Shown here piece after piece: positions 3,751 to 63,449 of a stretch of 64,000 nt of DNA (position 1 is its first letter; the number at the start of each line of letters is the position of its first letter). The translations under genes and the position numbers were made by a program. The stretch comes from a virus. The DNA is taken from the IMG/VR virus record IMGVR_UViG_3300031521_000009. One strand, written 5' to 3'. The notes under the pieces were generated by a model, which ran no database searches, was not told where the DNA came from, and saw only the letters and a list, made by a program, of their open reading frames with translations.

Positions 3751-3799
3751 AAAAAGAAAGCCATCTTTCCTATTCGTAGGTTAGATGGCTTATTTTTTT
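3751..3799. terminator. bidirectional intrinsic terminator at the convergence of the two genome halves
   Basis: AAGCCATCT-tt-CCTA-TTCG-TAGG-tt-AGATGGCTT hairpin with an A-run on the left and a T-run on the right. Confidence 0.85.
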
Positions 3800-23900: not shown

Positions 23901-26488
23901 TCTTTTGAGTTAGTAAGAGCTTGCATTTCCATTTCAACTTGTTTCATAACGGTAACGTTACGTTTCATCAAGTCATTGGCCGCTTTAGAGTTTTGAGTTC
24001 CCTCTTCACGTTTAGTATAATACTCGTATTCAGATAAAGCTTTATTATACTTATCAACTAATGGTTGCTTAGCTTCTTCATTTTCTTTTTGAAGTTGAGC
24101 AATCTGTTCATCAGTAGCAGTAGCACCTGCTTCTTTTGGTTGAAATGATTCAATAGCAGCTTTACTATCGCGCATATCCATGAAAGCTTGACCAGATTTG
24201 TTTAATGATATCTGACCATCAAATCCAGCCTGAGAAAGAATGTTTCTATCAACATCATTCAACCCCATACTTTCATTCAACTCTTTATACGAGTCCACTA
24301 ATTGCACAAATTCGACATACCTCATTTCAGCGAAGTTGTCGATTAATTGTCCCTCTTGATATCCCAATTTTTGTAGAGATGGACTCTTAGGTACTGAGAA
24401 TAAACTTGGATCAAATTGTTCTCCTACAGTAGCATCTTTGATAAGGATATCTTTCACTCCCCACATACCACCATCAGGTTTCTGAATATGATCAGTAGCT
24501 ATATTGATAAGTTCATCACCTTGGCCTTTCAGAACTTTCCATTTCAGTAATTCTTTTTGTTGAGTTTCTGTTTTACTGTCGGGAATACCTTTAATCTTTT
24601 TGATTACGTGAGGAACAGCACCAGTAATAGCAGTCATTAAAGTAGTAGCAAATATGGTTCCTAAAGAAGTATCTGAAAATCCTTCAAATACACCAGTAGT
24701 ACCTATCTGTCCATTACCAACTTCGGAATATGCTGGAGCAGCTTTATCAACTTGCATTTGAACAGTATTGTATAATGCTTGCTCAAAATTTTCTTGAAAG
24801 ACTTCACTAACATTTGCTTTGGCTACATTAGCAAGATAACTTTCATTGTCAACAATACCTTTAATGAATTTGCTATTGTATATCTTAGAGAAACTATCGT
24901 AAACAGCTTCTTTAATAGTCTTGTCAGTAAGTGTACCGGCAGCTTCTTTAGCAGCTAATTTTTGAGCCATTGGAGCATAGATTTCTCTCATAGCCTTTTC
25001 AGCAATGTTTGGTCCTAGTTGTTCACCAATCCATTTATTTGTAAAATGTTCAGTAACGTATGTCAATGGTAAAGCAAAGAATCCAAATTTAGCAGTTGTT
25101 TCCGGACTAACACCATTTTCATCAGCTACACGTTGAAATGAACTATAAGACTGTGAAGTACCAATAGCATTTACTAGAAACTCAGTACCATACTGCAAAG
25201 CTTTTGTTGCAATACCTTTACCAGCAAATGCTGCAGTACCTTCTAATGCAGACATAGCACCACCCGAAGCCATACCTACAGCTATCTGAGGAAGAAGATA
25301 ACCAAGTGTCGGAGCTTGACGTACCATCCAATCAATAGCACCGGTTCCTTGTTCTGTAGATGCTGATTGTTTAAATTCAGCTTGTTTCCAATCATTGAAA
25401 AAACCTTGTAATGCTTTATCTCCTTTTGACCAATTAATCGGTTGTGCTTCTCTACGTAATGAATTACCTACATTAGATGGAAGAGAGCCATAAGAGTAAT
25501 TGAATGCTTTATTCATAGCATCATAATCACCAGATTCAAATGCTTTATCAAGTTCTTCTACAGCCTTTACATTGCCTTGTGCTAAGTTAGCAGCACGTAC
25601 TTTATCATAATGTTTCTGAATGGCTTCATTACCTTGTTTGTAAAGATAAGTTTCATCATGATTCATTGCATTATTGAAAAGTGCACCAACAGAAGAAAAG
25701 GAACTCATAGTACCGGCGGTTGCTGCACTGTAAGCTCCTACAAAGAAATCTTTAATAGAACTACCAAATGTTTCTTTTGGACCCCACTTAGTTGAGTACT
25801 GTCTATCTCCTGCAACAAAAGCATCTGATGGTAATACATCAAATACTTCACGTCCATTGGTAGGGTCAATAGTTGTTGTTACTACTGCCTTTCCATCACC
25901 AAACATCTTATCCATTCCATCCTTTCCAGGGTTAGGAATACGTTTACCATTCTTCAAAATGTATGGTGCAGCAGAAGCACGTTCTTCACCGGTACCGCGT
26001 TCATTATCTTCATTACGAAATGGATCATGATAAGGCCCCCAATCAGGTCTGATATCTTTTACATTACCCAAATCTTTATCATGAACTGCTCTACCAGTAA
26101 CTGCTGAGTTTTGTGTGTCGTGATAAAACTTTAATGCTGATAAGTCAACACCTCTTTTATTTAAACTTACTTTCTTTGCATTCTCTACTTTTGCCTGATT
26201 AAAAGTTTTGATTATTTGACTTGCTGGTAAAGCTTCCGTATCAGTAGGATTTTTTTCTTTTGAGTACTTATCTACATAATAGTTTATATCGTTGAAAACA
26301 GGCTGCTCAGAATGCGCCATAGAGGTAAAGATATCTGCAGTTGATTGCTTATTCTTCAAAGCATCACCAACTACATCAACCTTACCTTGGTAATTTCCTT
26401 CTTGGTCTACAAATGCATCACTAGTCTGTGCTTGATATTTTTCTTCAAGTGTTGGTACTACTGGTTGTGCTTGTTCTTGGTTATCCAT
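8984..26488 (-). CDS. virion-packaged RNA polymerase polyprotein (crAss-type) with SF1 helicase and zincin domains
   Basis: 5834 aa. RNAP catalytic loop NDSDYDIDAL at 12581-12601 (compare DFDID of phi14:2 gp66). Walker A GGDYGTGKT at 21698-21724, plus IDEAS, GDVFQ and LYTAIGR. HEVLH at 18269-18283. Position matches crAss-like RNAP genes. Confidence 0.88.
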   Translation of the reverse strand: MDNQEQAQPVVPTLEEKYQAQTSDAFVDQEGNYQGKVDVVGDALKNKQSTADIFTSMAHSEQPVFNDINYYVDKYSKEKNPTDTEALPASQIIKTFNQAKVENAKKVSLNKRGVDLSALKFYHDTQNSAVTGRAVHDKDLGNVKDIRPDWGPYHDPFRNEDNERGTGEERASAAPYILKNGKRIPNPGKDGMDKMFGDGKAVVTTTIDPTNGREVFDVLPSDAFVAGDRQYSTKWGPKETFGSSIKDFFVGAYSAATAGTMSSFSSVGALFNNAMNHDETYLYKQGNEAIQKHYDKVRAANLAQGNVKAVEELDKAFESGDYDAMNKAFNYSYGSLPSNVGNSLRREAQPINWSKGDKALQGFFNDWKQAEFKQSASTEQGTGAIDWMVRQAPTLGYLLPQIAVGMASGGAMSALEGTAAFAGKGIATKALQYGTEFLVNAIGTSQSYSSFQRVADENGVSPETTAKFGFFALPLTYVTEHFTNKWIGEQLGPNIAEKAMREIYAPMAQKLAAKEAAGTLTDKTIKEAVYDSFSKIYNSKFIKGIVDNESYLANVAKANVSEVFQENFEQALYNTVQMQVDKAAPAYSEVGNGQIGTTGVFEGFSDTSLGTIFATTLMTAITGAVPHVIKKIKGIPDSKTETQQKELLKWKVLKGQGDELINIATDHIQKPDGGMWGVKDILIKDATVGEQFDPSLFSVPKSPSLQKLGYQEGQLIDNFAEMRYVEFVQLVDSYKELNESMGLNDVDRNILSQAGFDGQISLNKSGQAFMDMRDSKAAIESFQPKEAGATATDEQIAQLQKENEEAKQPLVDKYNKALSEYEYYTKREEGTQNSKAANDLMKRNVTVMKQVEMEMQALTNSKEFTREMKNDPNFQRQYAASWENVIKKNFTYENIENLRQRVDEAAQAQQTHANAIINDIDNQTTHATLSSDLNALQQRIGDTLSKPYNEAEHKSLITDVAGLSNRLAKELSVFNDQTSGNVFGTTMDNSKLDELKNKFSSMYDAAKGLTSNIAQQAEGKILTPANEKIDMYGKRVAELEPFITTKQSEYDAQLETINSLPAETSDEQRQQETDKLNAIQQELKHYQDESQTAAEEVGKAERTIESFDDEQFSHDNQLNAAARALGLENVNNQYSSFNGKGKLPFMRIDGQTLEHANETPEQFQKRIKLMREQNTPNGKTFLSNYFTELQDTMKEAEVWINSVLTDQGETYKKEYPDGKFYGTNGSEIIRQEIDRVKKNEHFLYTFKTSERIANEKKVSDHQSQPEREFVSELASKNANGNNTYEIQLRDAIRMADELASKIDGADLANQMLRLHSRVIIHENTFKSVQLFTTLGLRRSDGTQIISQNLIEELNAIGELDPSILDAKGQLTEAQLTQLSKRENIVNNILSEMNVEYNKENSELFSKDNQDLLFEIFREFYVANDSIGEDGKVLNSEGTLLHADDSSSHIGENGSLTNSTRELHARNPLFTMENVGGVSKRKYNFSSSNANDITRLREHLNTLIWIGSKYSMNDMFKIRKMIFTNESNTPLETGEQEAAINSIVGLLSNKTLTSPLSLFANYFLPMHSIATEKGGHHFIESYLSNALTIGGDYGTGKTQFTVGRAFRILRGLDGYSTDKKSSVGKLTVVSITEELSKVHKQSFGAENPTVISYTDFIKGMKSMNTTEGNTYVIDEASLVSENEMKAIKEHFVNTKAKLVFMGDVFQMRDAGSVGHYPLMMLQTMTTHMLTEQFSATSPLLRQLAEACRPAIGAIGRIVKFDKVTEDISGKTKLGARFFASHMDVWNSFIDGLATNPDRAAIFLDQDALDAFTKDNDTLKKQIEANKDKIYFALRRGVNDNKLLQGLRQKEIYAVFRQSDSSQIAKPITTSLMASALYTAIGRSSSWYGMVGDTSLNVDRSLAASTGLPEEALNAIQLQQKEKFRAIETLRLQGLNTDMNSMSMEAQKVATAPIANPTVTTPNPSNNNQNQTSGKEVGLKINYFNADGDLIDTATVDADWEIKKVGNRDVLSINWNGQTKFNNTIDPNISIKDNLIKHITGFESILRTSQSTENPITLVEENSVEDYEHKGTALKVGESYYDNNEKDIFQLLSINESVFSDGSTQYEITGIYPDENQTVSTVLSDNEDFSVPTAIIEEVKPVVPNEVSQLSRERFLNNSTAIFDKNKNKSHIFWATSATLVGASDSLSQENGKLRRAINDAFISNLSQYKHLFQLKAEKQNTTGWDKDNKTAKYDMIVLSFDPTNKGLVGEQLQAIQDIFMGTIAEDYVNAIIKKHSVNPNGTSIKAMDIPVYSIINDIFTTPGLNGGKFSNAIGSMTLPSVISIDGSGKISYTSFDVKETELEKQKTEKQRLVDAWNAVINNPIFAPVQSELIKQRDMNMSIYDTHASITDKVNVDFHDMGIRKVEYSNNESDLTTVTDLLKDFPGAQTDITPLYIDGRLRLNVQLNSNESIRLVVQMPKFSQSITSKNETIKQRANASMDSIIGRIKAEEDFISQEILSSTILSDEQKWKAKQTAFSKTTIYKLLRANLSTLKNSTQATDKAIFAFIKIQQKSKTFLDINLDSFKTDKDRNSGFDSQYKELSDFLSKKDNLAMSGLYDFLTLNNETYTTHVSGKETIDMLNVQALGINNKSFYVGLDKVEPITSPTPPVNKPGKKKLPNIGLEETQYSSPDVEPIQQSIDRVALRLGQSYTESELFLTQEGKIRLNGLTASGMVQDNTIMTLAAENGMMPRSTVDHEVLHVVYRNFINTDAKAMLLQAAQVINKYEQGTPINGDKELEEWIARDYAKQERATTKDKNVNIALRLYNQFKSFLKDIVMGLRGVYGSNKQLKNLYNQINNGEFANRVPEMNTEKSDIAFEEYESDTTSEETVQSTNESSSKRLLIASQMEEALKKELYNTESLVIAKSGLRMSILQNSIFSNTKNSNINSLSESINSIIEEGKEYQELYGETMATVITQNEQGELEENEMAVKDIVENGEPLNIKLSDINGRNSIDAYKIYSDKNIRMIVQTMLPSYDMMNDSFEKEVGAGERFDWDGYSSEQNVSDIQKLYLSSIPLINTNGSAVFDARGKVKFLDQKQVHSLMIDLGMRVSQMDGVTDKVSALKSIMEGFIDNSEIDESNRYLNPAAEVIHSMYNYMFEAKGKGTDFSLDYSNHYISEENYDGRYKGLLERSYQNEQEWKQEVGAQNSDATWSWDAKQEDQKRKIEQAKDLLNSLVSVYTSFNVKDQVKFTYYDDTMKSTHYYKDFWRGTAEEIKRIQGYKILNGELNTNSISFFKENMSIDYTDIKVSRYNNVTNKTSFLKYENGRFKFANKEGVIATSKKFGNTTMSPFSTDMLNTKGEYAHIVDIFNRIKGQFALKGVTPAMFKSLMVANSWSEVTDNMKTINKIGYVSNFNSEIQANYATPSDFMADYLGAMITLYNQYSKNYTEETLKANEDINKPAKKVIIQRNLLNHIRYNTKESLSPLTRIQSITGSDIVLGFLNRTTPKNLITFEVQPDIVENEEITNDVSSMRYVTPEDMFVSSNMIASIQQKLGGQTNDTHRYTAKGTATYSVALKTTLNEEFDAFKQDPTDTTKITGFIESIGENRSLGFTSIGKTKIDTSDFIDTSINMFMQEMVKSKARPVIYVPTTTVSDTGKIIFAKVESTLINTDNGFNIDYSVAGTEVLREYDKIKKRINTSRSNLNNALMEINKSLSTKTKFLNAPAENNEAHFTKGLRKQMIDVSKEAQANGTFDQLRNMFDATSLTKDLSGKGSYELSYETVDGIDVIIPGNAVTGKIDQFNMINKQSKIEKIRSLTNDVKSGKVESLPKLERAIMRLFENDFAKFTDMIANYGFKPVQSMNNLTKNTIGDKNPTNTTDKNPYYQQLEKSEIRFNQPMFGFYMATMFANNHIDDFSLNPFSFKNYLDKVKRNGPIHTPAQSVLTQGTKEVVQNNVRYQLHTPTLTTESPIVFYRDNMVDGGNTYQEIDGQKVLANNGNMMKPEDGQITINPFHYLQTLNSIGGTKTVIGNASMYKGLTNFRRADGTYSQIKRGDKVITGFDMQHTYYRNMFMRMLAETDRQLVARVGEESFNENKLSFTDKFKELYDDKNNQKEFNDIIVDMMNWIDNQQYYQDRITINPDGIERAGHMYNSIVAFMAPVSTQKGSVTSVNTYDALNDVDYSQPLNMDVVDNTKTKIVMNPSQDTDINAKLQAAPSQQDATGLGVSNNPEISSLYSAYMENKQGLQTALRKELEESISKYGEVEAAKQFKNIDWSKYDVSTLTEQQKSEIDPAIKQLMDFMRDRVVNSLRTSGQDMAFIELFSDMDVSMQLPMMRSKVLQSYRNMANQSIQARTKGIRLTQTVGEYLEEFVRDGKIYSRNDAINELRPGTNYRDYSFDEYNSDAMNQELAAAGFTMQRLQDMNIVNGKTTVGHISMPNVYAKVYGHRSNESLIDIQHINLGTERIALDSSNLYDKLMAGLSEDADMSLNQWSAFVDSPMIRKAIKNLKIETYVDELINPSVDNDGKRFISKRIANLIDSTREMTTEELQSEVNATNESILEAINSMELQSTDLANPDKVIAALMGSGEILEQILTEAQQLLKDFEESNTSFLSRVPATFLGSGGVFKTAMFHNGGNVVYIPTGMTLRNDSDYDIDALTMYSNSLDSKGHIIQKGADGHRNKMNALRNTITLHSGNQESLFLTSSLDKINEVMKQKEKLVDNLQNNSIRSIYESYSRNKAGADAIGILANSLTVSSIIISSSVNKFVETGTHSGIQNFINENAPKGKIKTGLNGFVIELGTWGQGALDNAKNNTFANYAISPVGINILAVLKLNGMNNSEVYDFFNNKNIRNLFHTYSGKTSIMTKSADFNLWKMASTEVDKIASRIEHFNNTNVSQWLESKGLSWKSNVHDTEKYSLELETTDVLLQQSIDDLLMKELTSYYKNNKEAFKNSPYDFTGSDKEQLLQQWKKDNGFDDENLFTYKNNKIVFDKTDVSNFDIKDLDSISTEVANELKLMVRSRANINIARTDIQGLRYMKMVPKLSVTADALYRLSTIMGMRNGIPSLDKDFRTMINTVQQTIGMSLQEYNSNPASDMNVAKHMAYYTINNDAYNKEQDEKKKAFMFSQEQLVANEINMGKLIKNLPQIDYILQELYRQELITKQSFMADNEAIEKDVVKSFLKLQNRTTLNFGGEVAAVSTAINDIMLDKYYATIGESAIMKGQYIYQAVGNTYENPSQNLDLSSLFDRQSFVKNFPQFMMDIVEHSDNIDYLNKTVQSELPAEEWIRFAVNPLIKLFTIGGKFDVKLLLDVNTKEMTEQRVAQLKDYFNSLPKEYKEMLINYEIIANRMSYRQGGLLQVIGVDFYKGPISKVYNDTYAELRSSLGLDSLVPNKYRKSVTFNSDIRERIYDYLGLQPEFAQYLSPKAVVNENSPKYAYQFETKTIDGEKVNTGHRINLKLNDNNAYEVFGNITSLGMSTMAGENMTSELRSFQTTPEEEYNLSLANRDNNDLILHQGSRAWVSEGQFLYTRSGKLIRVIKVKGTNFEYRLANDSDITYRMEQKEMDTQKRNNRIQLKEGTLQHSIFDPNATSLTENEVTKPMEYKVKGNMFLSQLNINTLTNDGVETRISIFDNKNKFNSINEVLDAYKYKVLSTIGEKTKNFPWDLKNYQNEEHRRNKINKYIRNLVDDVQVVETEKNANEIKQIKIAMAQLNFKQSLIVKALVQARALAYISSQGKNMVEQLTSKISSTDFLANQKTTFNKEVEDMSVGITTYGKVARSAIVEMINPAVRAEMKATESKRSEMLNTLEGSLELFDSEIAKKDSKKEVAEGEPAIGTPAQDNESDNNDEKNKCK

Positions 26489-47936: not shown

Positions 47937-48578
47937 TTATTTTGCTATAAAATATCCACCTATTGCACCGGCGCCTAAATAAAACCAAATATCATTTTTA
48001 CTCCACCATCCCGTTGAACGTTTTAATGCTCCAATCAAATCTTTTTTTTCTTTTTGAAGAACAAGATTTTCATTTTTGGATTGTTCTGTTTCTTCTACTT
48101 GTAGAAAGTATTTTTTAGTTACATCAGTCAGACTTAATTCGGTACTTGCTAATTTTTTCTCAGTACTTTTTATGATGGTATCTTTCTGCTGCAGAGAAAT
48201 ATTTTTTAGTCCTACAAGACTGTCACAATTTGCAAGAGTATGCTTAGTAGTATCGGTATTATAATCATTCTCAAACTTACTTATCTTATTTGTAAGAACT
48301 GAATTTTTGTTCTTATAAGTAGTAATCGTTTTAGTTGATTCTAAGCGATCTTTAGCCCTCAAAGTATTCACACTATCGATAGAGTCTTTTAATTGCTTAC
48401 GATAAGCGCTAGTTGCTGTATTATACCCATTACGATATGCAGATGATAGTTCTTGATTTACAATCAAGTTAGATGCTTGTTTTGATTGACATGATTTAAA
48501 CCAACCGCCAATAAACAACAAAAGCGCGATAGAAATTATCGCACTTATTATCCAGTTTTTCTTTATATATTTTATCAT
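47937..48578 (-). CDS. spanin-like lysis protein (N-terminal TM/signal, coiled coil, C-terminal TM)
   Basis: Hydrophobic N-terminus ending FKSC, long coiled coil and C-terminal WFYLGAGAIGGYFIAK; last gene of the lysis cassette. Confidence 0.55.
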   Translation of the reverse strand: MIKYIKKNWIISAIISIALLLFIGGWFKSCQSKQASNLIVNQELSSAYRNGYNTATSAYRKQLKDSIDSVNTLRAKDRLESTKTITTYKNKNSVLTNKISKFENDYNTDTTKHTLANCDSLVGLKNISLQQKDTIIKSTEKKLASTELSLTDVTKKYFLQVEETEQSKNENLVLQKEKKDLIGALKRSTGWWSKNDIWFYLGAGAIGGYFIAK

Positions 48579-48962: not shown

Positions 48963-49451
48963 CTACCGACCAAAGTAAAGTTTTACATCAAGTTTTCTAC
49001 GCTTAATCAAACCATTGGAAGGTTTACCTTTCGAATTAATCCATTTATTAAACTCATGTTCAATATTTGGATCGTTGGAATTTGCAAGAACAAGTTTTAA
49101 AAGACGACTGTCGCCAAGTCCTTCTGGTGTAGAATCAATATCAATATCGCTACCAACATTGTAAGCAAAATCTACAAGTGCATCAAATTTACCTTGATTT
49201 ACTTCAACTGGACCAAGTAAGTAAATTACATCTTTCTCAAATTGTCTTACATCATATTTTAAAAGTTCGTCAGCTTTACTTTGTGTAATAGCAGGATCTT
49301 TCAGACTTACACGAACACCATTTGAATATCGAGTACTACCCCAACCAATAGTAGGAATACCAGATTGACATAAATAAGGTTTAAGTTCACACCCTTCACA
49401 TGATTTTAATACTGCATATCCTTTTTCTGAAAATTTTAAATTTGTATTCAT
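48963..49451 (-). CDS. endolysin, GH24 (T4/P1-type lysozyme)
   Basis: EGCELKPYLCQSGIPTIGWG shows the E-x8-(D/C)-x5-T triad; FDALVDFAYNVG; GLIKRR. Confidence 0.92.
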   Translation of the reverse strand: MNTNLKFSEKGYAVLKSCEGCELKPYLCQSGIPTIGWGSTRYSNGVRVSLKDPAITQSKADELLKYDVRQFEKDVIYLLGPVEVNQGKFDALVDFAYNVGSDIDIDSTPEGLGDSRLLKLVLANSNDPNIEHEFNKWINSKGKPSNGLIKRRKLDVKLYFGR

Positions 49452-49464
49452 AATATGTATTTAT

Positions 49465-49836
49465 TTAATCCGATTTATTTTCAATATCTAAAGCACGCAT
49501 TTTAATTGCTACTGGACAATTATCTGTATTGTCTTTATTATGTTTGCAACTTTTATTAGAACTTACAATCATTCTATATGCTGAGATAAGTCTTTGTGAA
49601 CGATTATCTTTTTTTAGAAGTTTTTCAACATCTTGTTCAAGAGTTTCAATTTTCTTCTCAGCTTCTAATTTCCATTTAAGAAGAAGATTTAGTGAAGTCT
49701 CCCATGATTGATTTTCTTTGATAATTGCATTACTTTTTCGAATGCTAATAGAGGATGGAGAAAAATATGAAACAATACTCATTGCTCCACCAGCAGCTCC
49801 AATAGCTCCACCTATTAATATTAAAATATTATCCAT
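49465..49836 (-). CDS. membrane-anchored coiled-coil protein (holin/antiholin-like)
   Basis: N-terminal Gly-rich TM helix, coiled coil and C-terminal C-x8-CP; directly upstream of the endolysin. Confidence 0.5.
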   Translation of the reverse strand: MDNILILIGGAIGAAGGAMSIVSYFSPSSISIRKSNAIIKENQSWETSLNLLLKWKLEAEKKIETLEQDVEKLLKKDNRSQRLISAYRMIVSSNKSCKHNKDNTDNCPVAIKMRALDIENKSD

Positions 49837-50000
49837 CGTTTTCTTTTTATATAAGTTTCGTCAATTTTTTTTGATTCCTCTAGTAGTCGTATTAAATGAT
49901 CTATTTCATTAGCAGTCATATTATCACAAACTCCATTATCTATTGCTTTTATAACTCTTTTGAAGAGTCGTATGATTGTTTTTTTTAGCGTAGCATCCAT
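49821..50000 (-). CDS. 59-aa protein, paralogue of the N-terminal domain of the HTH protein at 61839 (missing from the ORF track)
   Basis: MDATLKKTIIRLFKRVIKAIDNGVCDNMTANEIDHLIRLLEESKKIDETYIKRKRWIIF*; overlaps both neighbours; aligns without gaps to VLKMIENNECEDLTNEELEQISILI. Confidence 0.75.
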   Translation of the reverse strand: MDATLKKTIIRLFKRVIKAIDNGVCDNMTANEIDHLIRLLEESKKIDETYIKRKRWIIF

Positions 50001-50361
50001 AGTAAAAATATAGAAATATTGATAAACTCAAAGATAATAATAAAATAGCACTCAAACAGTAAAATATATATGGCAATTTTATATTAACCTTATATAAATC
50101 TACTAAGACTAAAATTAAAATATCCGTGTAGATTAATATTCTATGCCAGGAACAAAATCTAAATGTATAAGATAATGCTAACATACCTATATGAAATAAA
50201 TAACAATGACAAATTATAGTCGTATGTGAAGTATATGCTGTATAATCAATAAATCCAAAAGCTTCCCCAGTCATACCTATAGCTAAATAAACTGTAAGTA
50301 TAACTGGGAATAACTTTACGAAGTAAAGAGATACATATCTTGATATATGTTCAAGATTCAT
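49936..50361 (-). CDS. multi-pass membrane protein (about 4 TM) with an FRFCSWHR motif
   Basis: Four hydrophobic stretches and a polar C-x2-H-R motif. Confidence 0.75.
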   Translation of the reverse strand: MNLEHISRYVSLYFVKLFPVILTVYLAIGMTGEAFGFIDYTAYTSHTTIICHCYLFHIGMLALSYTFRFCSWHRILIYTDILILVLVDLYKVNIKLPYIFYCLSAILLLSLSLSIFLYFYYGCYAKKNNHTTLQKSYKSNR

Positions 50362-50366
50362 AATTC

Positions 50367-50876
50367 TTATTTGCTAGGTGGGAATGTTGCACCACCTGAG
50401 TCCGGGCTTTTTTTATCATCAGCTTGATCAGAACTTTCTTTTTTAATTTTCATTTGTTTCCAATTATTTGGTTGTGAAAAAAATTTAAGAGTAATTAAAG
50501 AATTCATAGGTATTCCTTTTGTAGAACGAACTGTTGATTCTTTAATCTCTACTAATGAAATTTTACGTTCAATTTCAAAATCTTTTTGAAGTTTTGCTTG
50601 AAGAATTTTATATTCTTTTTGTTCATCTAATGAAAGTAATAATATACTATCATCATGTTGAGCATTTACTTCTTTCCCTTTTTCTTGAATAATATTTTCT
50701 AATTCAATTAAACGTGGATTAATTGTTTTTTGAATTTTATTATTTTCTTTTTCAAGAATTTCAAAGTTATCTAAGATAAGACAATTTAATTCAGTATTAT
50801 CAATACCTTTAGCAGAAAAAATTGTCATTAAATTACTAATCTCAAAAAACTTTACTCTAATTTCTCCAATTTTCAT
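50367..50876 (-). CDS. hypothetical protein downstream of the tail fibre (possible assembly chaperone) with a peptide-like C-terminal extension
   Basis: 169-aa helical protein; an internal in-frame ATG at 50453 gives MKIKKESSDQADDKKSPDSGGATFPPSK. Confidence 0.6.
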   Translation of the reverse strand: MKIGEIRVKFFEISNLMTIFSAKGIDNTELNCLILDNFEILEKENNKIQKTINPRLIELENIIQEKGKEVNAQHDDSILLLSLDEQKEYKILQAKLQKDFEIERKISLVEIKESTVRSTKGIPMNSLITLKFFSQPNNWKQMKIKKESSDQADDKKSPDSGGATFPPSK

Positions 50877-50923
50877 GATGGTTTTTTTTTATTTATTGAT
50901 TTATATATAAGAAATTTTTATTA

Positions 50924-51421
50924 TTAAGTTGGTGCAGATACTAAATCAGTACAATAATATGTTACTCCATCTACAACAATATATGTTCTAAAATAATATA
51001 TTTTATTTGCTATTAAAGGAGTACTGGTATTAATAGTAAGTGTTTGATATGTTACACTTATATCACTATTTGTACGTGTCCCTATAATATAATCATTATA
51101 AGAACGTGTAGGATTAGGAGCTGAATTCCAACAAATACCATACACTATAGAGCTACTAACTGGTGCTGTAAAAGTCATCCAATAAGCAATAAAAGTAGAT
51201 AAGTTAGTAACTGTTGCATTAGAAATACTTGTATTTATTGTAACAGTTATATGTTTATAGTTTCTAAAATTATATAAACTATTCTTAGAACCAACATATA
51301 GAGAATCAAATGTACCAGTAGCTGCTGTAAACAATTCAGTCAAACTTCTATCACTTGAATCTCCATATATTTCAGTAACAACATCTCTTTGATTAAATGT
51401 AGTTATATCAGGAACAGCCAT
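50924..51421 (-). CDS. tail-fibre-associated protein with an FN3/Ig-like C-terminal domain
   Basis: YGICWNSAPNPT...LIANKIYYFRTY...GVTYY resembles the Bacteroidota FN3-like repeat. Confidence 0.55.
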   Translation of the reverse strand: MAVPDITTFNQRDVVTEIYGDSSDRSLTELFTAATGTFDSLYVGSKNSLYNFRNYKHITVTINTSISNATVTNLSTFIAYWMTFTAPVSSSIVYGICWNSAPNPTRSYNDYIIGTRTNSDISVTYQTLTINTSTPLIANKIYYFRTYIVVDGVTYYCTDLVSAPT

Positions 51422-54400
51422 ACTTATCCTCCAATTGTTTTATTCTTGATTCTGCGTTAGCTAATTTGGCTACCAATAAATCAAAATATTTCACTTTATA
51501 TTCTCCTTCTATATCTCCGACTACAAATTCTTCAAATCCGCTACTTAGCAAATCTTGCGCTATAACACCAAACCTAAGTTCGTCTAAATTATTTTTAAAA
51601 TTAAACTCGACTAAGTCAATAGAGCTATAGTCTTTTAGTATTGGTCTTATGTTAGTCTTTAAGGTTCTATCTGATGATAAATTAAAATTAGTTGCACTTA
51701 CGTCACCACTAAATGTTCCTGTAGTCGCTCCAGTAATTGCACCACTAATATTTGCACTACCATTAAAGGATTGTCCCCAAATAGTTCTAGCTGTTTGCAA
51801 TATAGTAGCAGTACCAGCATTACCCGTTATAGTAGTTTGTGTGGCTAACCTTGAATCATTACCTTGACAAAATGTTCCTGCTATTGTACCAAAGGAACCG
51901 ACTTGTAAGATACCTCCAGTACCTGTTATAATAGGTAAACTAGCAACAGTTCCTATCAATCCTCCACTAGTTATATTTCCATGAACATGTGTAGTTAATG
52001 AATAAGAGCCTGACGCTTGTTTGTTATTGATCTGACCTTGCAATTTTTCAATCGCTGATTCTAAAGTATCGGTGTTCAAAACAGTGCTATTTGCACCAAC
52101 CGTAAAGCCTGTAATTACTTGTGAGAATAGATCGGTAATTCCATAACCGATAACTGTAGTTGGCCGGATACTAATTTCTGACCATGAGTAACTAGGTTTT
52201 GTCGCTGATTTAGCCCATGCAGAAACATCAGATGCTACACGAGCATCTGAAAGTCTTGAATCATTTCCTTGACAAAATGTACCTGCTGTTGTACTGAAGG
52301 AACCCGCTTGTAAAATACCGCCAGTACCAGTTATAATTGGCAAAGATGCTATTGAACCTATATATCCACTATTAGTTATATTACCATGAGAGTGAGTATT
52401 CAATGAGTAATTAGAAGGAATAAAATTTCCACTAGTCCAAACCGTATTCCATGCACCCGTAGACCTTCTTTGATACATGTTGCCATCGCTACTGAATCCT
52501 AATTGATGGAAATATGTGGAAGTGCCATTATAAGTATCAATAGTCAATACTGCATTAGCATTATCTACTGTAGTAAATTTATTAGTTGATGCTGCACCAA
52601 GTCTTGAATATGATAATAACTTATCTACATTAAGAGTATTTAAATCCAATGTTGGCATACTTGCAGAGTTGCTTAAAGAGCTATGTGTATGGATAGTTGG
52701 TGAATAATAACTTCCATGCTGTCCATCTAGTAAATCAGCATTAAAATCACTAACCATAGTAGTAGATGCTACAGTTAATGGTGCTGTTCCAGTTGCTATT
52801 GTTGATTGAAGTTGAGTAGCATTGACTGTTGACAAAAAGACTCCCCTACCATCACCATATAATTTTACATTAGGGGTAAATACAGACGAAGATATTATAC
52901 CCAACTGCCATATATTTGTTCCCGCTGACCCAATTGAAGTATTTAAAACCTCCCCAGTCATATATCTATTTACCCACCAGTCAGTAATTCCTTGTGTTCT
53001 AGGATATATAGCCATATTTGCAGCATATCCAATATCCCCAGTTATCCTAATATTTGCTGCTTGATTAGAAGTACCTTGATTTTGAATATAATTAGACATA
53101 CCACTAGGTAAACTAGTTAACCCATTACCACTTCCTATAAAATTAGTTGCACTGACTGTAGATGCAAAAGTTGCTGCTCCATCGACTTGTAGATTAGTAT
53201 TTGTAGATGATATAAATGAACCATCTGTATTACATTGTCCTAACCTAATTACCGAGCCACTACCTCCTATTCCCCATATATTAGATGAAGTCCAATTTCC
53301 TATAAATGCAGCAGAATTATATAGATAAGTTCTATAAACTCCATTTATATAACTATTAGCAGCTTGCGCTGAACTATTTTGATTCTGTATTGCATCTGTA
53401 ATTCCATAGTTAGATAAAGTAGTTGGATGATTACCAGTATTCCATGGAGTATAACCTAAAGCAGTAGTAACCATTCCTGAATTGATACCAGTTATCCATC
53501 CACCATAGTTACCAAGATTATTATTAAATTGACTGAGATTAGTTGGAAAATCACTAACTTGTGACTTAGTAATGCTTATACCAGTAGATTTATTCCATGC
53601 CGTAAATACGGGATCTGTCTCAGTAAAACTAGATAGGTAGTTATGCGTATGAGTAGTTATCAGTCCAGTAAGAACCGATTCTACATTCTCCTTAGTTATT
53701 CCACTAATATAACTATTTGGATTTGATGCCAAGTAATAAGATGAGCTATCATAGCTTATGGTGGTTCCATTAGCCTTTACAAATCCAATTCCATTCAATT
53801 GTGGCTGTCCGGCAAGACTAGATAAAGTTTGGTCGCCAGTATTAGTACCACTTACTGCATTCAATGCTACAATATTTGAATGTATATCACTAGAATATGC
53901 AACATTACTTGCTGATGTAACTAAACCTTTTCCATTAACCGTTATATTATTAAAAGTACCTACATTAGCATTTACTGTTGCTAAAGTTAGTACAGTAGAA
54001 CCTATTACATCACCAGTATGCGTTGCATTACTTAATTTATTATTGAAAATATTCCAATCAGTAGAAGATAATGCTCCGGTAGTTATTGTAGAAGATAAAC
54101 CCAATGATATTGCTTGACCAGATAAAGAAAGACCATTACTTGTTCCTAGAGTAACAGCAACATGTTTATCATAACTTACTTTTTGTAATGCTGTTAATAT
54201 ACTATCAGTTGTTGATATTGTACCTGATGTTGCTACATAACCAGAAAGTATAGTATTTAATATATCTGTAATTCCATATCCTGCAACTGTTGTTGGATGA
54301 TTACTTACACTCCATTGTAATATGTTAGCAACATTTGAAAGACCTATATCTGACTTATTCAATACAACAGCACCTATGTGACCATTTACAGAAATAACTG

Positions 54401-55448
54401 CATCTGTATTATCAACTTTACCCCATGTATTTCCATTAGCAATTAACCAGTCACCAACTTGCCATTCACTAACAGAACCCATAGTAGTAGTGCCGGCTAC
54501 CGAAACTATATAATAATCACCATTAGATGTTGGAATAGAAGGTAATGAAGGTGTTCCATTTGATGCATCCCAAAATCCTTTATAATCCACTTGACCAAAT
54601 AATGATGTCGGAAGTTGAGATAAAGGAACTTTTGTATCATTTCCTAATGTAGCTAAACCATTTGCTACGCCCATTAATGATGGAGACAATTTGTTATTAA
54701 AAGTAATCCAATCTACATTACTTAGTGCACCATTTGAAGTACTAGACGAAAGACCCAATGATAATTGTTGATTATCTAATGAAAGGCCATTAGAAGAACC
54801 CAATGTAAGTGGATTATGGTTTTTATAGCTAAGCTTCTGTATCGCGGTAAGAACAGTATCTGATGGACTTATAGTACCTTCTGTTGCTACATATCCTGAA
54901 AGGTTAGTACCAAGAACTCTATTATATGTAAAATAAAGATTAGCTGCTTCAGTAACTTCGGAAGTAGTATATGATGGTTTAGAAGTAGAAAGAGCCCAAG
55001 TTGGAATATCTGTTATTCCAAAACCTTGGACTGTTGTTGGTTTATTTAATAAACCAGAGAATGTCAATTGGTGTAGATTACCACTAGCTTGTGAATGATC
55101 GTAAGCAATCTTACCTAAATCACCATAGTAAGCATTTATATGAAGATTGCCAAGAACTAAATTTTCGACTGGAGCAAATAAAACCCATTGTCCATTTCTT
55201 CGACAATAGAGTTGTTCGTCTGGAGCATCACCGATACCGCTAGTAAAAAATGTAGTTGAAGGTTCTACAATATAAGTAACATTTGTATCACTTAGAATAA
55301 CTTCAAATTGTTCTACGTTTTCAGTAAATATCACTTCGTAAGTGACAATTACATTATCCAATACCAATTCAAAGATTGCATTTTTAGCGTTTATGTTTTC
55401 TTCATTGTTTCCACTTGTTTCATCTACCGTAATAGAATAGATATCCAT
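51408..55448 (-). CDS. tail fibre / receptor-binding protein with a C-terminal peptidase S74 intramolecular chaperone
   Basis: 1346 aa, G/S/T/N-rich. Four PTTxxGYGITD-type fibre repeats, HxH motifs, and SSDRTLKTNI...FGVIAQD followed by a terminal coiled coil. Confidence 0.88.
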   Translation of the reverse strand: MDIYSITVDETSGNNEENINAKNAIFELVLDNVIVTYEVIFTENVEQFEVILSDTNVTYIVEPSTTFFTSGIGDAPDEQLYCRRNGQWVLFAPVENLVLGNLHINAYYGDLGKIAYDHSQASGNLHQLTFSGLLNKPTTVQGFGITDIPTWALSTSKPSYTTSEVTEAANLYFTYNRVLGTNLSGYVATEGTISPSDTVLTAIQKLSYKNHNPLTLGSSNGLSLDNQQLSLGLSSSTSNGALSNVDWITFNNKLSPSLMGVANGLATLGNDTKVPLSQLPTSLFGQVDYKGFWDASNGTPSLPSIPTSNGDYYIVSVAGTTTMGSVSEWQVGDWLIANGNTWGKVDNTDAVISVNGHIGAVVLNKSDIGLSNVANILQWSVSNHPTTVAGYGITDILNTILSGYVATSGTISTTDSILTALQKVSYDKHVAVTLGTSNGLSLSGQAISLGLSSTITTGALSSTDWNIFNNKLSNATHTGDVIGSTVLTLATVNANVGTFNNITVNGKGLVTSASNVAYSSDIHSNIVALNAVSGTNTGDQTLSSLAGQPQLNGIGFVKANGTTISYDSSSYYLASNPNSYISGITKENVESVLTGLITTHTHNYLSSFTETDPVFTAWNKSTGISITKSQVSDFPTNLSQFNNNLGNYGGWITGINSGMVTTALGYTPWNTGNHPTTLSNYGITDAIQNQNSSAQAANSYINGVYRTYLYNSAAFIGNWTSSNIWGIGGSGSVIRLGQCNTDGSFISSTNTNLQVDGAATFASTVSATNFIGSGNGLTSLPSGMSNYIQNQGTSNQAANIRITGDIGYAANMAIYPRTQGITDWWVNRYMTGEVLNTSIGSAGTNIWQLGIISSSVFTPNVKLYGDGRGVFLSTVNATQLQSTIATGTAPLTVASTTMVSDFNADLLDGQHGSYYSPTIHTHSSLSNSASMPTLDLNTLNVDKLLSYSRLGAASTNKFTTVDNANAVLTIDTYNGTSTYFHQLGFSSDGNMYQRRSTGAWNTVWTSGNFIPSNYSLNTHSHGNITNSGYIGSIASLPIITGTGGILQAGSFSTTAGTFCQGNDSRLSDARVASDVSAWAKSATKPSYSWSEISIRPTTVIGYGITDLFSQVITGFTVGANSTVLNTDTLESAIEKLQGQINNKQASGSYSLTTHVHGNITSGGLIGTVASLPIITGTGGILQVGSFGTIAGTFCQGNDSRLATQTTITGNAGTATILQTARTIWGQSFNGSANISGAITGATTGTFSGDVSATNFNLSSDRTLKTNIRPILKDYSSIDLVEFNFKNNLDELRFGVIAQDLLSSGFEEFVVGDIEGEYKVKYFDLLVAKLANAESRIKQLEDKYGCS
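51846..52388 (-). repeat. duplicated ~46-aa fibre module (HGNIT...LPIITGTGGILQxGSF...AGTFCQGNDSRL)
   Basis: Copies at about 52251-52388 and 51846-51983. Confidence 0.85.
54030..54902 (-). repeat. duplicated ~73-aa fibre module (LSGYVAT...NGLSL...DWxxFNNKLS)
   Basis: Copies at about 54684-54902 and 54030-54249. Confidence 0.85.
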
Positions 55449-61838: not shown

Positions 61839-62132
61839 ATGAGAAATTTAAATAAGATCATTTCTATTGTTTTAAAAATGATAGAGAATAATGAATGCGA
61901 AGATTTGACTAATGAAGAATTAGAACAAATATCAATACTTATTCATAGACCTACTACAATGGGCCGAGAAGATGCTGCTAAGTTTATGGGAGTATCACTA
62001 AATAAGTTCCATGAACTAAAAGACATGGGTATAATATCAGAACCGCGCAAACGTAAAGGATTCAAAGAGAAAGAATATTATCTATCTGATTTGAAAAAAG
62101 CATTAGAATTAAAGAAAAAACTAGACCTATAA
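61839..62132 (+). CDS. excisionase/MerR-like HTH regulator with an N-terminal helical domain
   Basis: MGREDAAKFMGVSLNKFHELKDMGIISEPRK is an HTH_17-like winged helix. Confidence 0.75.
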   Translation: MRNLNKIISIVLKMIENNECEDLTNEELEQISILIHRPTTMGREDAAKFMGVSLNKFHELKDMGIISEPRKRKGFKEKEYYLSDLKKALELKKKLDL

Positions 62133-62138
62133 AATTCA

Positions 62139-62179
62139 TTAGTACTAAGTTAGAGTAGTATATAATTTTGACATGTCAA
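62139..62179 (+). promoter_or_regulatory. promoter (-7 TAATTTTG) with palindromic operator candidates
   Basis: TTAGTACTAA at 62139-62148, TAATTTTG at 62163-62170, and the perfect palindrome TTGACATGTCAA at 62168-62179. Confidence 0.55.
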
Positions 62180-62210
62180 CAATTCAGTTGGCAATTAAAA
62201 ACTATATATT

Positions 62211-62942
62211 ATGTTGACATTAGATGGTACACTACCAACTGGCTCATTAGGCGGTGGTAGTTCAATGGGTTCCGGAGTAGGTCTTGGAGCAGTCGGTGGT
62301 GGTGTTGCTGGGTTAGTTCTCGGTTCACTTCTTGCAAACAATGGTAATGGTTTGTTTGGTGGTGGTAACAATGGCAATGCAAATGTTGCTGAGTTTGGTG
62401 CTATCAATAACCAAATACAATCATTGGCCGGTCAAATCAGTAATACTGCATTGACTGGTCAAATTCGTGCTGATACTATTGACCTTTCTCAAAGTATTAG
62501 TAATGTAGGTACACAAATAGGACAATTGGCGACTGCTCAAGCTGCAGCTAATTTTACTACTTTGGATTCAATCAATGGATTGGGAAGAGATATTACCGCT
62601 TCTCAAAATCAGAATGCTCTTCAACAATTAAACAGTTTCAATAACCTTACTACAACTACATTGCAAGGCTTCAATAGCTCAGCAATGCAAGTACAAAATG
62701 CTACGAATCAAATCATAGCACAAGGTACGGCTAATGCAGCTGCTATGGCTCAATGCTGTTGTGAGATTAAGAGTACTATTCTTGCCGATGGTAATGCAAC
62801 ACGCGCACTTATCAATGACTTGAATGTTCAAAATTTACGGGATCAACTTTCTGCTGCTAACAACAAAATCAGTAACAATGAACAAAATCAGTATTTGTTG
62901 AATACTATTTTGACTCATATTACTCCTACAGCAGTAGTTTAA
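62211..62942 (+). CDS. glycine-zipper membrane protein with a long N/Q-rich coiled coil and a CCC motif
   Basis: GVGLGAVGGGVAGLVLGSLL TM segment, heptad repeats and AQCCCEIK. Confidence 0.85.
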   Translation: MLTLDGTLPTGSLGGGSSMGSGVGLGAVGGGVAGLVLGSLLANNGNGLFGGGNNGNANVAEFGAINNQIQSLAGQISNTALTGQIRADTIDLSQSISNVGTQIGQLATAQAAANFTTLDSINGLGRDITASQNQNALQQLNSFNNLTTTTLQGFNSSAMQVQNATNQIIAQGTANAAAMAQCCCEIKSTILADGNATRALINDLNVQNLRDQLSAANNKISNNEQNQYLLNTILTHITPTAVV

Positions 62943-62953
62943 TACTTGCAATT

Positions 62954-63262
62954 ATGGCCAGTCCAGTAATTGTAGGTACTTCGGCTATAGTAGTCGCTCC
63001 TATAAATAAGAAAAGAAGTAACATTCGATTTCAGAATACCAGTACTAATATAATCTATATAAAGAAAATTCCTTTGAGTGGTCCTTATTCGGTTGTATCT
63101 GCTACTGATTATGAAATTCAATTGTTCCCGGCATCATCTTCTCAGGAAGGTGGTGAAGCATTCGAAACTAACTCTATTGCATCTTTTATGGCTATTGCAG
63201 CCGGAGCAAGTAGTGCTTTAGCAGTTTATGAAACTAATAAGGTAACCTCTAAAACTCATTAA
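62954..63262 (+). CDS. small all-beta protein (102 aa)
   Basis: KRSNIRFQNTSTNIIYI pattern suggests a jelly-roll / spike-base-like fold; co-transcribed with the CCC gene. Confidence 0.65.
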   Translation: MASPVIVGTSAIVVAPINKKRSNIRFQNTSTNIIYIKKIPLSGPYSVVSATDYEIQLFPASSSQEGGEAFETNSIASFMAIAAGASSALAVYETNKVTSKTH

Positions 63263-63263
63263 G

Positions 63264-63449
63264 ATGGAAGAAATAACATTGCATTTACCTCTTAGTAAGG
63301 TAATAGAACTTGTTAGACAAGAGGAAAGAATGATGATTAAGAAATTTTTAGCTACAAATTTAAATCAACAAACTGCTGATTACATTGATCAGTATGTTCC
63401 TGTTGAATCAGAAGTATTGGCTATGTTTACATGTCCGGGCATCGGATGA
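63264..63449 (+). CDS. hypothetical protein (61 aa)
   Basis: Starts 1 nt after the upstream stop; followed by a terminator. Confidence 0.65.
   Translation: MEEITLHLPLSKVIELVRQEERMMIKKFLATNLNQQTADYIDQYVPVESEVLAMFTCPGIG

Follow-up and report, generated by a model that had tools for sequence, protein, structure and literature searches.

The viral sequence IMGVR_UViG_3300031521_000009 of the IMG/VR collection (64,000 nucleotides, hereafter the window) carries a cassette in which a short open reading frame (ORF) with a Pro/Gly-rich C-terminus ends at the start codon of a gene for a small membrane protein, Mem, and the Mem gene in turn overlaps an ORF of 59 amino acids (aa). We find that this micro-ORF is conserved across phages, that it is exchanged together with Mem, and that the 59-aa product is related to the N-terminal domain (Nd) of a 97-aa helix-turn-helix (HTH) protein encoded elsewhere in the window, beside a gene for a protein that we call CCC. 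Our preferred reading, to which we assign a probability of roughly 0.4, is that the cassette is an accessory lysis-control module in which the micro-ORF serves as a translationally coupled leader and Nd as an adaptor.

A first-pass annotation of this DNA had described three units directly upstream of the lysis genes: a hidden 28-aa peptide begun at an in-frame internal start at 50453, a membrane protein of four transmembrane (TM) segments with an FRFCSWHR motif, and an unannotated 59-aa paralogue of the N-terminal domain of the regulator at 61839. All three units are present on the minus strand at the positions given, the ATG lies in frame within a 169-aa ORF, and a 123-aa gene and the endolysin gene come next. 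The evidence on the two proteins is given below.

A conserved micro-ORF ends at the Mem start codon

Mem loci were gathered by three routes, namely exact look-up of representatives, a scan of IMG/VR with a protein pattern (which gave 174 confirmed loci, most of them of the csAssE-Sib lineage) and a degenerate DNA pattern for FCxWHRxLIxN (41 viral contigs, 40 of them with true members of the Mem family). Grouping at 80% identity gave 23 clusters, 21 of which could be examined; contigs are cited below by handles of the form L001.

In 20 of the 21 clusters, an ORF stops within –8 to +1 of the Mem start codon. The first-pass annotation had asked whether a variable Pro-Pro-ending micro-ORF comes before the membrane gene, and a Pro-rich one does lie ahead of Mem homologues. 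Stop and start overlap mostly as ATGA, GTGA or TAATG. The ORF is free-standing in about 16 clusters, where it spans 16–43 codons and starts MK...; gene finders had already called it in L007 and L138, and the GenBank entry of phage csAssE-Sib annotates a 40-aa ORF. Tails of the ORFs that end at the Mem start contain 40% Pro+Gly, compared to 8% for other ORF C-termini at the same loci (Mann-Whitney P = 1e-12); because the lineages are related, this statistic measures conservation, not independent events.

The C-termini sort into three types. Type 1 follows the pattern acidic-P-P/D-x-(R)-T/S-G-G-G/A-T/S-x-P, as in NPPIPRTGGGTHP, DPPIRTGGGTTP, LPEDGGATVPTKPKRK and, in the window, SPDSGGATFPPSK. 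Type 2 has proline only (e.g. NPPNPDPTPPLP), and type 3 is basic. The family motif P-x-x-GG(G/A)(T/S)-x-P is present in 12 lineages. Motifs DPP, PPP, PPG and PPN are frequent, and Pro lies immediately 5′ of the stop in 7 of the 21 lineages.

The codon changes indicate that selection on the micro-ORF acts at the protein level. The tail SPDSGGATFPPSK is invariant across the window, L001, L003 and P0036; within the window lineage, the last 13 codons show three synonymous and no non-synonymous changes, and the last nine codons of L112 and L096 differ by five synonymous and no non-synonymous changes. From one lineage to another, Gly and Pro are encoded by different synonymous codons. In types 1 and 2 only the C-terminal part, approximately the last 13 residues, is conserved, and in four lineages (window, L008, L094 and L127) the peptide forms the tail of larger, mutually unrelated proteins. 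The conserved C-terminus thus has the placement expected of an arrest or leader peptide, beside the start of the next gene whatever the N-terminal context. The basic type retains its N-terminus (MAR[NK]T) as well as its C-terminus. Micro-ORF products are hydrophilic; they lack signal sequences and hydrophobic segments, and most contain no Cys.

Two other explanations of the region were tried and rejected. An RNA hairpin in place of the peptide, with GGUGG (Gly codons) pairing to CCACC (Pro codons), folds no better than shuffled sequence (z = 0.04), and Pro-only micro-ORFs offer no Gly codons for such pairing. For a programmed –1 frameshift from the micro-ORF into Mem, there is no slippery heptamer, and the Mem frame of the window has a stop four codons before the ATG. 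In csAssE-Sib (L002, OR575929), the 40-aa basic ORF does not overlap Mem, and a strong GC hairpin (GGGGAAGGTG...CACCTTCCCC, L002:4912-4973) lies between the two.

The micro-ORF and Mem are exchanged as one unit

In the window, the micro-ORF is fused to an unrelated upstream gene, which forms the body of the 169-aa ORF. Homologues of this body are 141–142 aa long, share 76–79% identity with it and have no tail. In L138, the TGA of the body gene overlaps the ATG (as ATGA) of a separate 33-aa micro-ORF (...NPRTGGGTGGGTRP...), which itself overlaps the Mem start; in the window, one additional base in the A-rich junction merges the two frames. L001 has a different gene upstream and a TAA directly 5′ of the same ATG, so that its micro-ORF is free-standing.

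Homology between the DNA of the window and that of L138 extends through the body gene, ends a few bases past the micro-ORF ATG and restarts 40 nt before the Nd start. Over the intervening 406 nt, the span of the micro-ORF and Mem, the two DNAs are not similar and protein identity is 35%; the flanking proteins are 78%, 95% and 91% identical. The micro-ORF and Mem therefore constitute one exchangeable unit with the ATG at 50453 as its left border.

Conservation of the C-terminus alone, tolerated in a free ORF or as the tail of unrelated proteins, fits action in cis. We regard as less probable, yet worth serious consideration, that the product acts in trans by binding Mem, whether as one of its subunits, to inhibit it or to trigger it; an antiholin-like partner would be one example. 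Such a role could explain conservation at the protein level, the co-variation of peptide type with Mem clade and the joint exchange of the two, the retention of both termini in the basic type, and the fact that none of the four fused variants in the window lineage has lost the micro-ORF ATG. It sits poorly with peptides of just 16 residues, with the restriction of conservation to the extreme C-terminus in types 1 and 2, and with repeated fusion to unrelated larger proteins; moreover, a free ligand would have no need for the invariable placement of the conserved part at the Mem start codon.

Mem founds a family of small phage membrane proteins

An exhaustive HMMER search of 1.8e9 cluster representatives recovered 29 Mem proteins, all of 86–192 aa. 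In the motif FxFCxWH[RKQ], C70, W72 and H73 are invariant in 27 members and F69 is nearly so. The extended form of this motif, S..FxFCxWH[RKQ]xLI, occupies the loop between TM2 and TM3; other conserved features are KxYPI in TM1, GHS before TM2 and ILYxKxGC after TM4. AlphaFold2 models Mem as a four-helix membrane bundle (mean predicted local distance difference test score, pLDDT, 82) with short loops only and no sensor domain. By the positive-inside rule, the termini and the Cys/Trp/His loop are probably cytoplasmic. Like a holin, Mem is a small predicted inner-membrane protein with at least one TM segment and a charged C-terminal tail, which is rich in Lys, Asn and His.

Mem matches nothing in Pfam or PHROGs, including any described holin family. 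Fold searches (Foldseek against PDB, and ESM Atlas) returned generic helical bundles only and no meaningful match, and no relative turned up when 185,579 prokaryote genomes were scanned by pattern. In the GenBank phage collection, searched as DNA and as protein, the sole match (34%) was in phage csAssE-Sib; P0002, the 97-aa HTH protein, and P0005 matched nothing there. On the strength of these searches, the 141-aa Mem protein founds a phage-restricted family. A zinc clasp formed by C70, H73 and C123 of Mem with the Cys of Nd was also considered and is unsupported, the presence of C123 not following that of Nd.

The 59-aa ORF encodes Nd without the HTH domain

Substitution patterns mark the 59-aa ORF as a real gene. 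Relative to the 95%-identical contig L001, all five substitutions are third-position and synonymous, and one of them creates a stop in the overlapping tail of the Mem frame. Relative to L138, 18 codons differ, 15 synonymously and three non-synonymously; nucleotide differences by codon position are 4/0/15, and the other two frames are full of stops. Orthologues occupy the same overlapping position in L006, L007, L009, L091, L123 and L138.

The pairwise match between the 59-aa protein and the 97-aa HTH protein is weak (7 of 21 identities), and homologues from other phages bridge the two. We built a hidden Markov model (HMM) of Nd solely from HTH-bearing homologues of other phages and ran it over 842 six-frame ORFs of the window. 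The 97-aa protein scored 2.4e-10 and the 59-aa protein 5.2e-8, with the next ORF at 0.094. Together with the alignment, which has the consensus L..LL..I.MIDNG.CD..T.EEL and a nearly invariant Cys, these values identify the product of the 59-aa ORF as a true paralogue of the N-terminal domain of P0002 that lacks the HTH, as the first-pass annotation had it.

Nd itself is helical and comprises ∼35 residues. The AlphaFold2 model of the 59-aa protein (pLDDT 79) is a helical hairpin; the protein has a conserved Cys25 and a basic, Trp-containing amphipathic tail. Full-length relatives have an HTH_17-like C-terminal half, and 4 of 10 HTH-class homologues match Pfam HTH_17 (PF12728; best E value 7.7e-6); P0002 itself matches only phrog_668, 'HTH DNA binding protein' (3.8e-4). 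A tetratricopeptide repeat (TPR) receptor domain is absent from this partner, which consists of the 35-residue hairpin with or without HTH_17.

Two further observations concern the junction of Mem and Nd. In L017 (L017:3474-4244), one of ∼78 contigs of the csAssE-Sib lineage, the loss of a single base from GAAAGAAA puts Mem and Nd-HTH in one frame that encodes 257 aa; the fusion may be genuine or may reflect a sequencing error. Homopolymeric A/T runs of at least 8 number eight in the window, and three of them fall in this 1-kb region (49979-49986, 49865-49872 and 50882-50890). A run of A6–A8 is found at the same place in the Mem/Nd overlap in seven of eight class-B lineages (classes are defined below). 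Slippage at this site is one possible explanation, a Lys-Lys pair encoded in each of the two frames another.

The cassette has three architectures and is split in the window

Three gene orders were found. In class A, the micro-ORF and Mem are followed by Nd-HTH, the CCC protein (phrog_16490), a ∼97-aa beta protein and a ∼60-aa protein; members are L008, L099, L107, L110, L114, L117, L124 and, with insertions, the 21-member L102 cluster. This contiguous set often stands between tail-fibre and endolysin genes. In class B (window, L006, L007, L009, L091, L123 and L138), the order is micro-ORF, Mem, Nd-only, a TM + coiled-coil protein and endolysin. Class C has the micro-ORF and Mem without Nd and is represented by L112/L096 and L127; two of its genomes are complete, with terminal repeats. 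The micro-ORF and Mem are thus the invariant core, and most lineages have an Nd gene in addition. The genes of Mem and Nd overlap in nearly every lineage.

The first-pass annotation had suggested that membrane, HTH and CCC genes adjoin one another in other Bacteroidota phages and, on that condition, that this genome carries a split and partly duplicated version. The suggestion was right, as the three genes are adjacent in L008, L099, L107, L110, L114, L117, L124 and L101. The second half of the class A cassette has its orthologue in the operon at 61839-63449 of the window, whose CCC protein is 50% identical to that of L114 (8e-44) and whose beta protein is 56% identical (1e-37). In L114, the entire cassette lies between the tail fibres with the phrog_21885 gene and a T4-type lysozyme gene, and the flanks in the window are the same. 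Because L114 has a contiguous cassette between these flanks, the window layout looks derived: Nd-HTH, CCC and beta would have moved ∼12 kb, leaving an HTH-less Nd beside Mem. The window thus carries a split, partly duplicated cassette, the parts of which adjoin one another in class A phages. Of these parts, only Nd occurs in both halves; one of its genes is on the minus strand and the other on the plus strand, and they belong to separate transcription blocks.

CCC proteins belong to phrog_16490, which the L101 member (L101:10936-11895) matches at 2.7e-44. CCC and the beta protein form a conserved, viral-only pair, and the Atlas neighbours of CCC are all viral hypothetical proteins. No similarity is detectable between CCC and the TM–coiled-coil protein. 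By our searches, the micro-ORF, Mem and Nd families match no Pfam or PHROGs model, and we found nothing on this cassette in the literature. The index of the public assembly collection lists one close relative of the locus in 88 blocks.

A possible role in lysis control

The mechanism that we favor has several steps. Ribosomes that finish the micro-ORF would re-initiate on Mem, and the micro-ORF would thereby set the amount and timing of Mem, its Pro/Gly C-terminus acting on, or just off, the ribosome. Mem would be an accessory lysis-control membrane protein, either antiholin or holin-like. Nd, made in coupled amounts, would dock on the cytoplasmic face of Mem or pair with the Nd of the 97-aa HTH protein, a contact that would tie membrane or lysis state to transcription of the CCC operon.

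The known systems closest to the cassette are analogies only, and membership in none of them can be claimed. In hok/mok of plasmid R1, and in re-initiation on the MS2 lysis gene, a short overlapping leader frame feeds ribosomes to a small membrane-protein gene, and the ATGA, TAATG and GTGA overlaps of the cassette are of the same kind. Differences from hok/mok are that the C-terminal Pro/Gly amino acid sequence of the cassette leader is itself conserved, that no antisense RNA is known for the cassette, and that Mem, with four TM segments and ∼130 aa, is not a Hok-type toxin. As a candidate stalling leader, the micro-ORF also resembles SecM, TnaC, MifM and EF-P-dependent XPPX stalls in that the last 10–15 residues are conserved and the N-terminal context is irrelevant. 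About a quarter of the micro-ORFs have no PP, the distance to the stop is not fixed, and sequence similarity to known arrest peptides was not found.

Evidence for a link to lysis comes from gene position. A peptidoglycan hydrolase, or a candidate for one, is encoded within 2.6 kb on the same strand in about nine lineages (the window cluster, L006, L112, L114, L127, the L102 cluster, L092, L122 and L134; in L092 and L134 it is a candidate amidase with a weak match, 2e-13 and 1e-5). In L117 the hydrolase gene is upstream of the cassette. In the window, Mem stands at the head of the lysis genes, 0.5 kb from the endolysin gene. Small proteins that tune lysis timing include P2 LysA, which has four TM segments and is antiholin-like, and T4 RI and RIII, which work with holin T; RIII, small and cytoplasmic, partners a membrane lysis protein. 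The cassette is like these in encoding small membrane and cytoplasmic proteins beside an endolysin. It differs in that no homology to them was detected and that it lies away from lysis genes in some lineages.

Several observations weigh against our reading. L103 carries the full cassette amid phosphoesterase, radical-SAM and RNase H genes, and in csAssE-Sib it is found beside structural and antirepressor genes; with these two placements, the link to lysis is not universal. The window already has a plausible two-TM holin (83 aa) and a spanin-like gene. Mem belongs to no holin family in Pfam or PHROGs, and an invariant Cys/Trp/His loop would be unusual for a holin. The micro-ORFs in which PP stalling motifs are lacking are those of L009, L090, L127, L138 and the basic type, and the spacing from the GG motif to the stop ranges from 4 to 14 residues. 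Finally, the N-terminus kept by the basic type (MAR[NK]T) hints at a peptide that acts in trans. The influence on lysis timing proposed in the first-pass annotation is therefore plausible by position in most lineages, but it does not hold everywhere, L103 being placed among metabolic genes.

As for Nd, an interaction with Mem or with another Nd is favored by the gene overlaps, by the duplication of Nd at the split and by the L017 fusion. One form that this could take, which we hold to be a reasonable minority view, is antagonism of the SinI/SinR type or sequestration at the membrane. Late Nd59 would heterodimerise with the Nd of the 97-aa protein, or compete for Mem, and so switch the CCC operon. 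In Bacillus subtilis, SinI is a ∼57-aa paralogue of the interaction domain only of the regulator SinR; Nd59, a candidate antagonist, is likewise a small protein homologous only to the non-DNA-binding domain of a regulator (by the HMM match at 5.2e-8). In the cassette, however, the shared domain is N-terminal and the HTH (HTH_17-like) C-terminal, no sequence relationship exists, and the gene of the small paralogue is linked to one for a membrane protein. The view gains from Nd alone being common to the two cassette halves, from its two genes being on opposite strands in separate transcription blocks, from the location of Nd-HTH between Mem and CCC in at least eight contiguous lineages, and from the natural Mem–Nd-HTH fusion in L017. 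It loses from the two complete genomes that keep Mem and the micro-ORF without Nd, from the lack of a second Nd-HTH on the L123 contig, which is, however, only 43% complete, and from the C-terminal Cys of Mem, the presence of which does not follow that of Nd. A more elaborate scheme, to which we give still less credence, would have the co-evolving micropeptide and Mem hold or release Nd, as adaptor or as handle of the HTH protein, such that membrane state or the translational state of the Pro/Gly leader sets both transcription and lysis. Slippage on the A6–A8 run, yielding a Mem–Nd fusion like that of L017, might add a further layer to this scheme.

It is somewhat less likely again that the module has nothing to do with lysis, and that Mem is an exclusion, host-takeover or toxin-like membrane protein held in check by leader coupling, as in hok/mok. 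The autonomy of the cassette and its varied genomic contexts (L103, csAssE-Sib and L114) are compatible with such a role, as are the fast turnover of the micro-ORF–Mem block and the insertion of mobile elements (TnpB, HNH) inside the cassette. Most lineages, on the other hand, place the cassette beside peptidoglycan hydrolases, and no evidence of a toxin family was obtained, no PADLOC search having been made.

The first-pass annotation had read the three parts as a peptide signalling circuit. The three-part layout stands, but the circuit has no direct support, and we consider it improbable that an exported or processed peptide is handled by Mem and read through Nd/HTH to set lysis timing in the manner of arbitrium (AimP/AimR) or Agr (AgrD/AgrB). 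In those systems too, a short peptide gene adjoins a membrane protein or regulator gene. The cassette combines a peptide gene, a membrane protein with invariant Cys and His, as in the AgrB protease, and a DNA-binding partner, and its peptide and Mem co-vary like a specificity pair. Yet the peptides are hydrophilic, with neither signal sequence nor hydrophobic helix, mostly have no Cys, and in four lineages are fused to other, larger proteins. Mem has no sensor or extracytoplasmic domain, no AgrB or peptidase match in Pfam (none to AgrB at an E value of 0.1) and no AgrB fold; there is no TPR receptor; and Nd/HTH is absent from two complete genomes that keep the core. To our knowledge, no peptide import route of the arbitrium/Agr kind is known in diderm Bacteroidota, the likely hosts.

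The idea that AT richness produced the small ORFs by chance, for which only their small size speaks, can be practically dismissed, given substitutions skewed to synonymous, retention across lineages whose Mem proteins share only ∼25–35% identity, and significant HMM E values.

Layout of the locus and its neighbours

Features of the window are collected in the table. Along the minus strand, the order of the overlap chain is body, micro-ORF, Mem, Nd and TM–coiled-coil protein; the 59-aa ORF shares 65 nt with the 3′ part of the Mem gene and 16 nt with the start of the 123-aa gene.

Table 1. Positions of the cassette, its separated half and neighbouring genes in the window
Feature	Position	Strand	Remarks
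Tail fibre	51408-55448	-	First in the minus-strand gene order here
165-aa phrog_21885 protein		-	Between tail fibre and 169-aa ORF
169-aa ORF	50367-50876	-	In-frame internal ATG at 50453-50451
Body of 169-aa ORF	50454-50876	-	141 residues; upstream gene unrelated to the micro-ORF
Micro-ORF equivalent	50367-50453	-	28 codons + stop, MKIKK...SPDSGGATFPPSK
Conserved C-terminal motif SPDSGGATFPPSK + stop	50367-50408	-	5 nt ahead of Mem ATG
Mem, 141-aa four-TM protein (predicted)	49936-50361	-	ORF and AlphaFold2 model
FRFCSWHR motif, Mem residues 67-74	50140-50163	-	Predicted cytoplasmic TM2-TM3 loop
Nd-only 59-aa protein	49821-50000	-	ORF, codon changes, HMM match, AlphaFold2 model
A8 run within Mem/Nd overlap	49979-49986	-	Homopolymer count of the window
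123-aa protein	49465-49836	-	N-terminal Gly-rich TM, coiled coil, two Cys near C-terminus
Endolysin, T4-type lysozyme	48963-49451	-	Pfam PF00959 (Phage_lysozyme) 1.6e-29; phrog_7 3.4e-38
Two-TM small protein, 83 aa	48575-48826	-	Candidate canonical holin; overlaps 213-aa gene
213-aa protein, spanin-like	47937-48578	-	N-terminal signal/lipobox-like segment (..FKSC), coiled coil, C-terminal TM
Terminase		-	After the 213-aa spanin-like gene in minus-strand order
Nd-HTH protein (P0002), 97 aa	61839-62132	+	N-domain + HTH_17-like domain
CCC protein (243 aa), beta protein (102 aa), 61-aa protein	62211-63449	+	Other cassette half
CCC protein	62211-62942	+	Gly-zipper/coiled-coil/CCC; phrog_16490 family

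Equivalents of the 123-aa gene follow the Nd-only gene in L006, L007, L009, L091, L123 and L138. The 213-aa protein gives weak matches to Rz-like spanin PHROGs (3e-4) and, with its topology read from the sequence, resembles a unimolecular spanin. The two-TM gene is kept in relatives as a 73-aa gene overlapping the 213-aa gene, and the pair is conserved.

The endolysin is swapped at a fixed position between flanking genes that are ∼90% identical: the window has PF00959 (48963-49451), and close relatives have Glyco_hydro_108 + PG_binding_3 (L001:1050-1520, L003:6909-7379 and L138:4898-5368). L138 encodes a 429-aa pentapeptide-repeat protein (L138:5537-6826) between the endolysin and two-TM genes, which is absent in the window. 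A TnpB/IS605-type transposase is found within the cassette, either in the gap between Nd-HTH and CCC (L101:9005-10231) or right after Mem (a 381-aa ORF in L122), and HNH/homing endonucleases occur between Mem and the endolysin (L112:5404-5886 and 6988-7830).

The window is AT-rich phage DNA (∼33% GC) with a long block of structural genes on the minus strand. Its large terminase has 27–28% identity to crAss-like terminases, with further matches in phages of Bacteroides, Flavobacterium and Cellulophaga; because of these matches, we infer that the source is a large crAss-like phage of Bacteroidota. A single ORF of 5834 aa occupies 8984-26488 on the minus strand, followed by one of 1725 aa (3798-8975); crAss-like phages typically encode such giant proteins.

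Implications for phage biology

Almost nothing has been characterised of lysis or late regulation in Bacteroidota phages, crAss-like ones included. The cassette is widespread in gut and environmental phage contigs, with 174 IMG/VR loci from one scan and 40 more from a second, and its micro-ORF of 16–43 codons, conserved as it is, has mostly been missed by gene callers or merged with a neighbouring gene. If the micro-ORF does gate a lysis-control protein, this would represent a new way to time lysis; a regulator anchored at the membrane through Nd, should that be its role, would constitute a new phage signal path.

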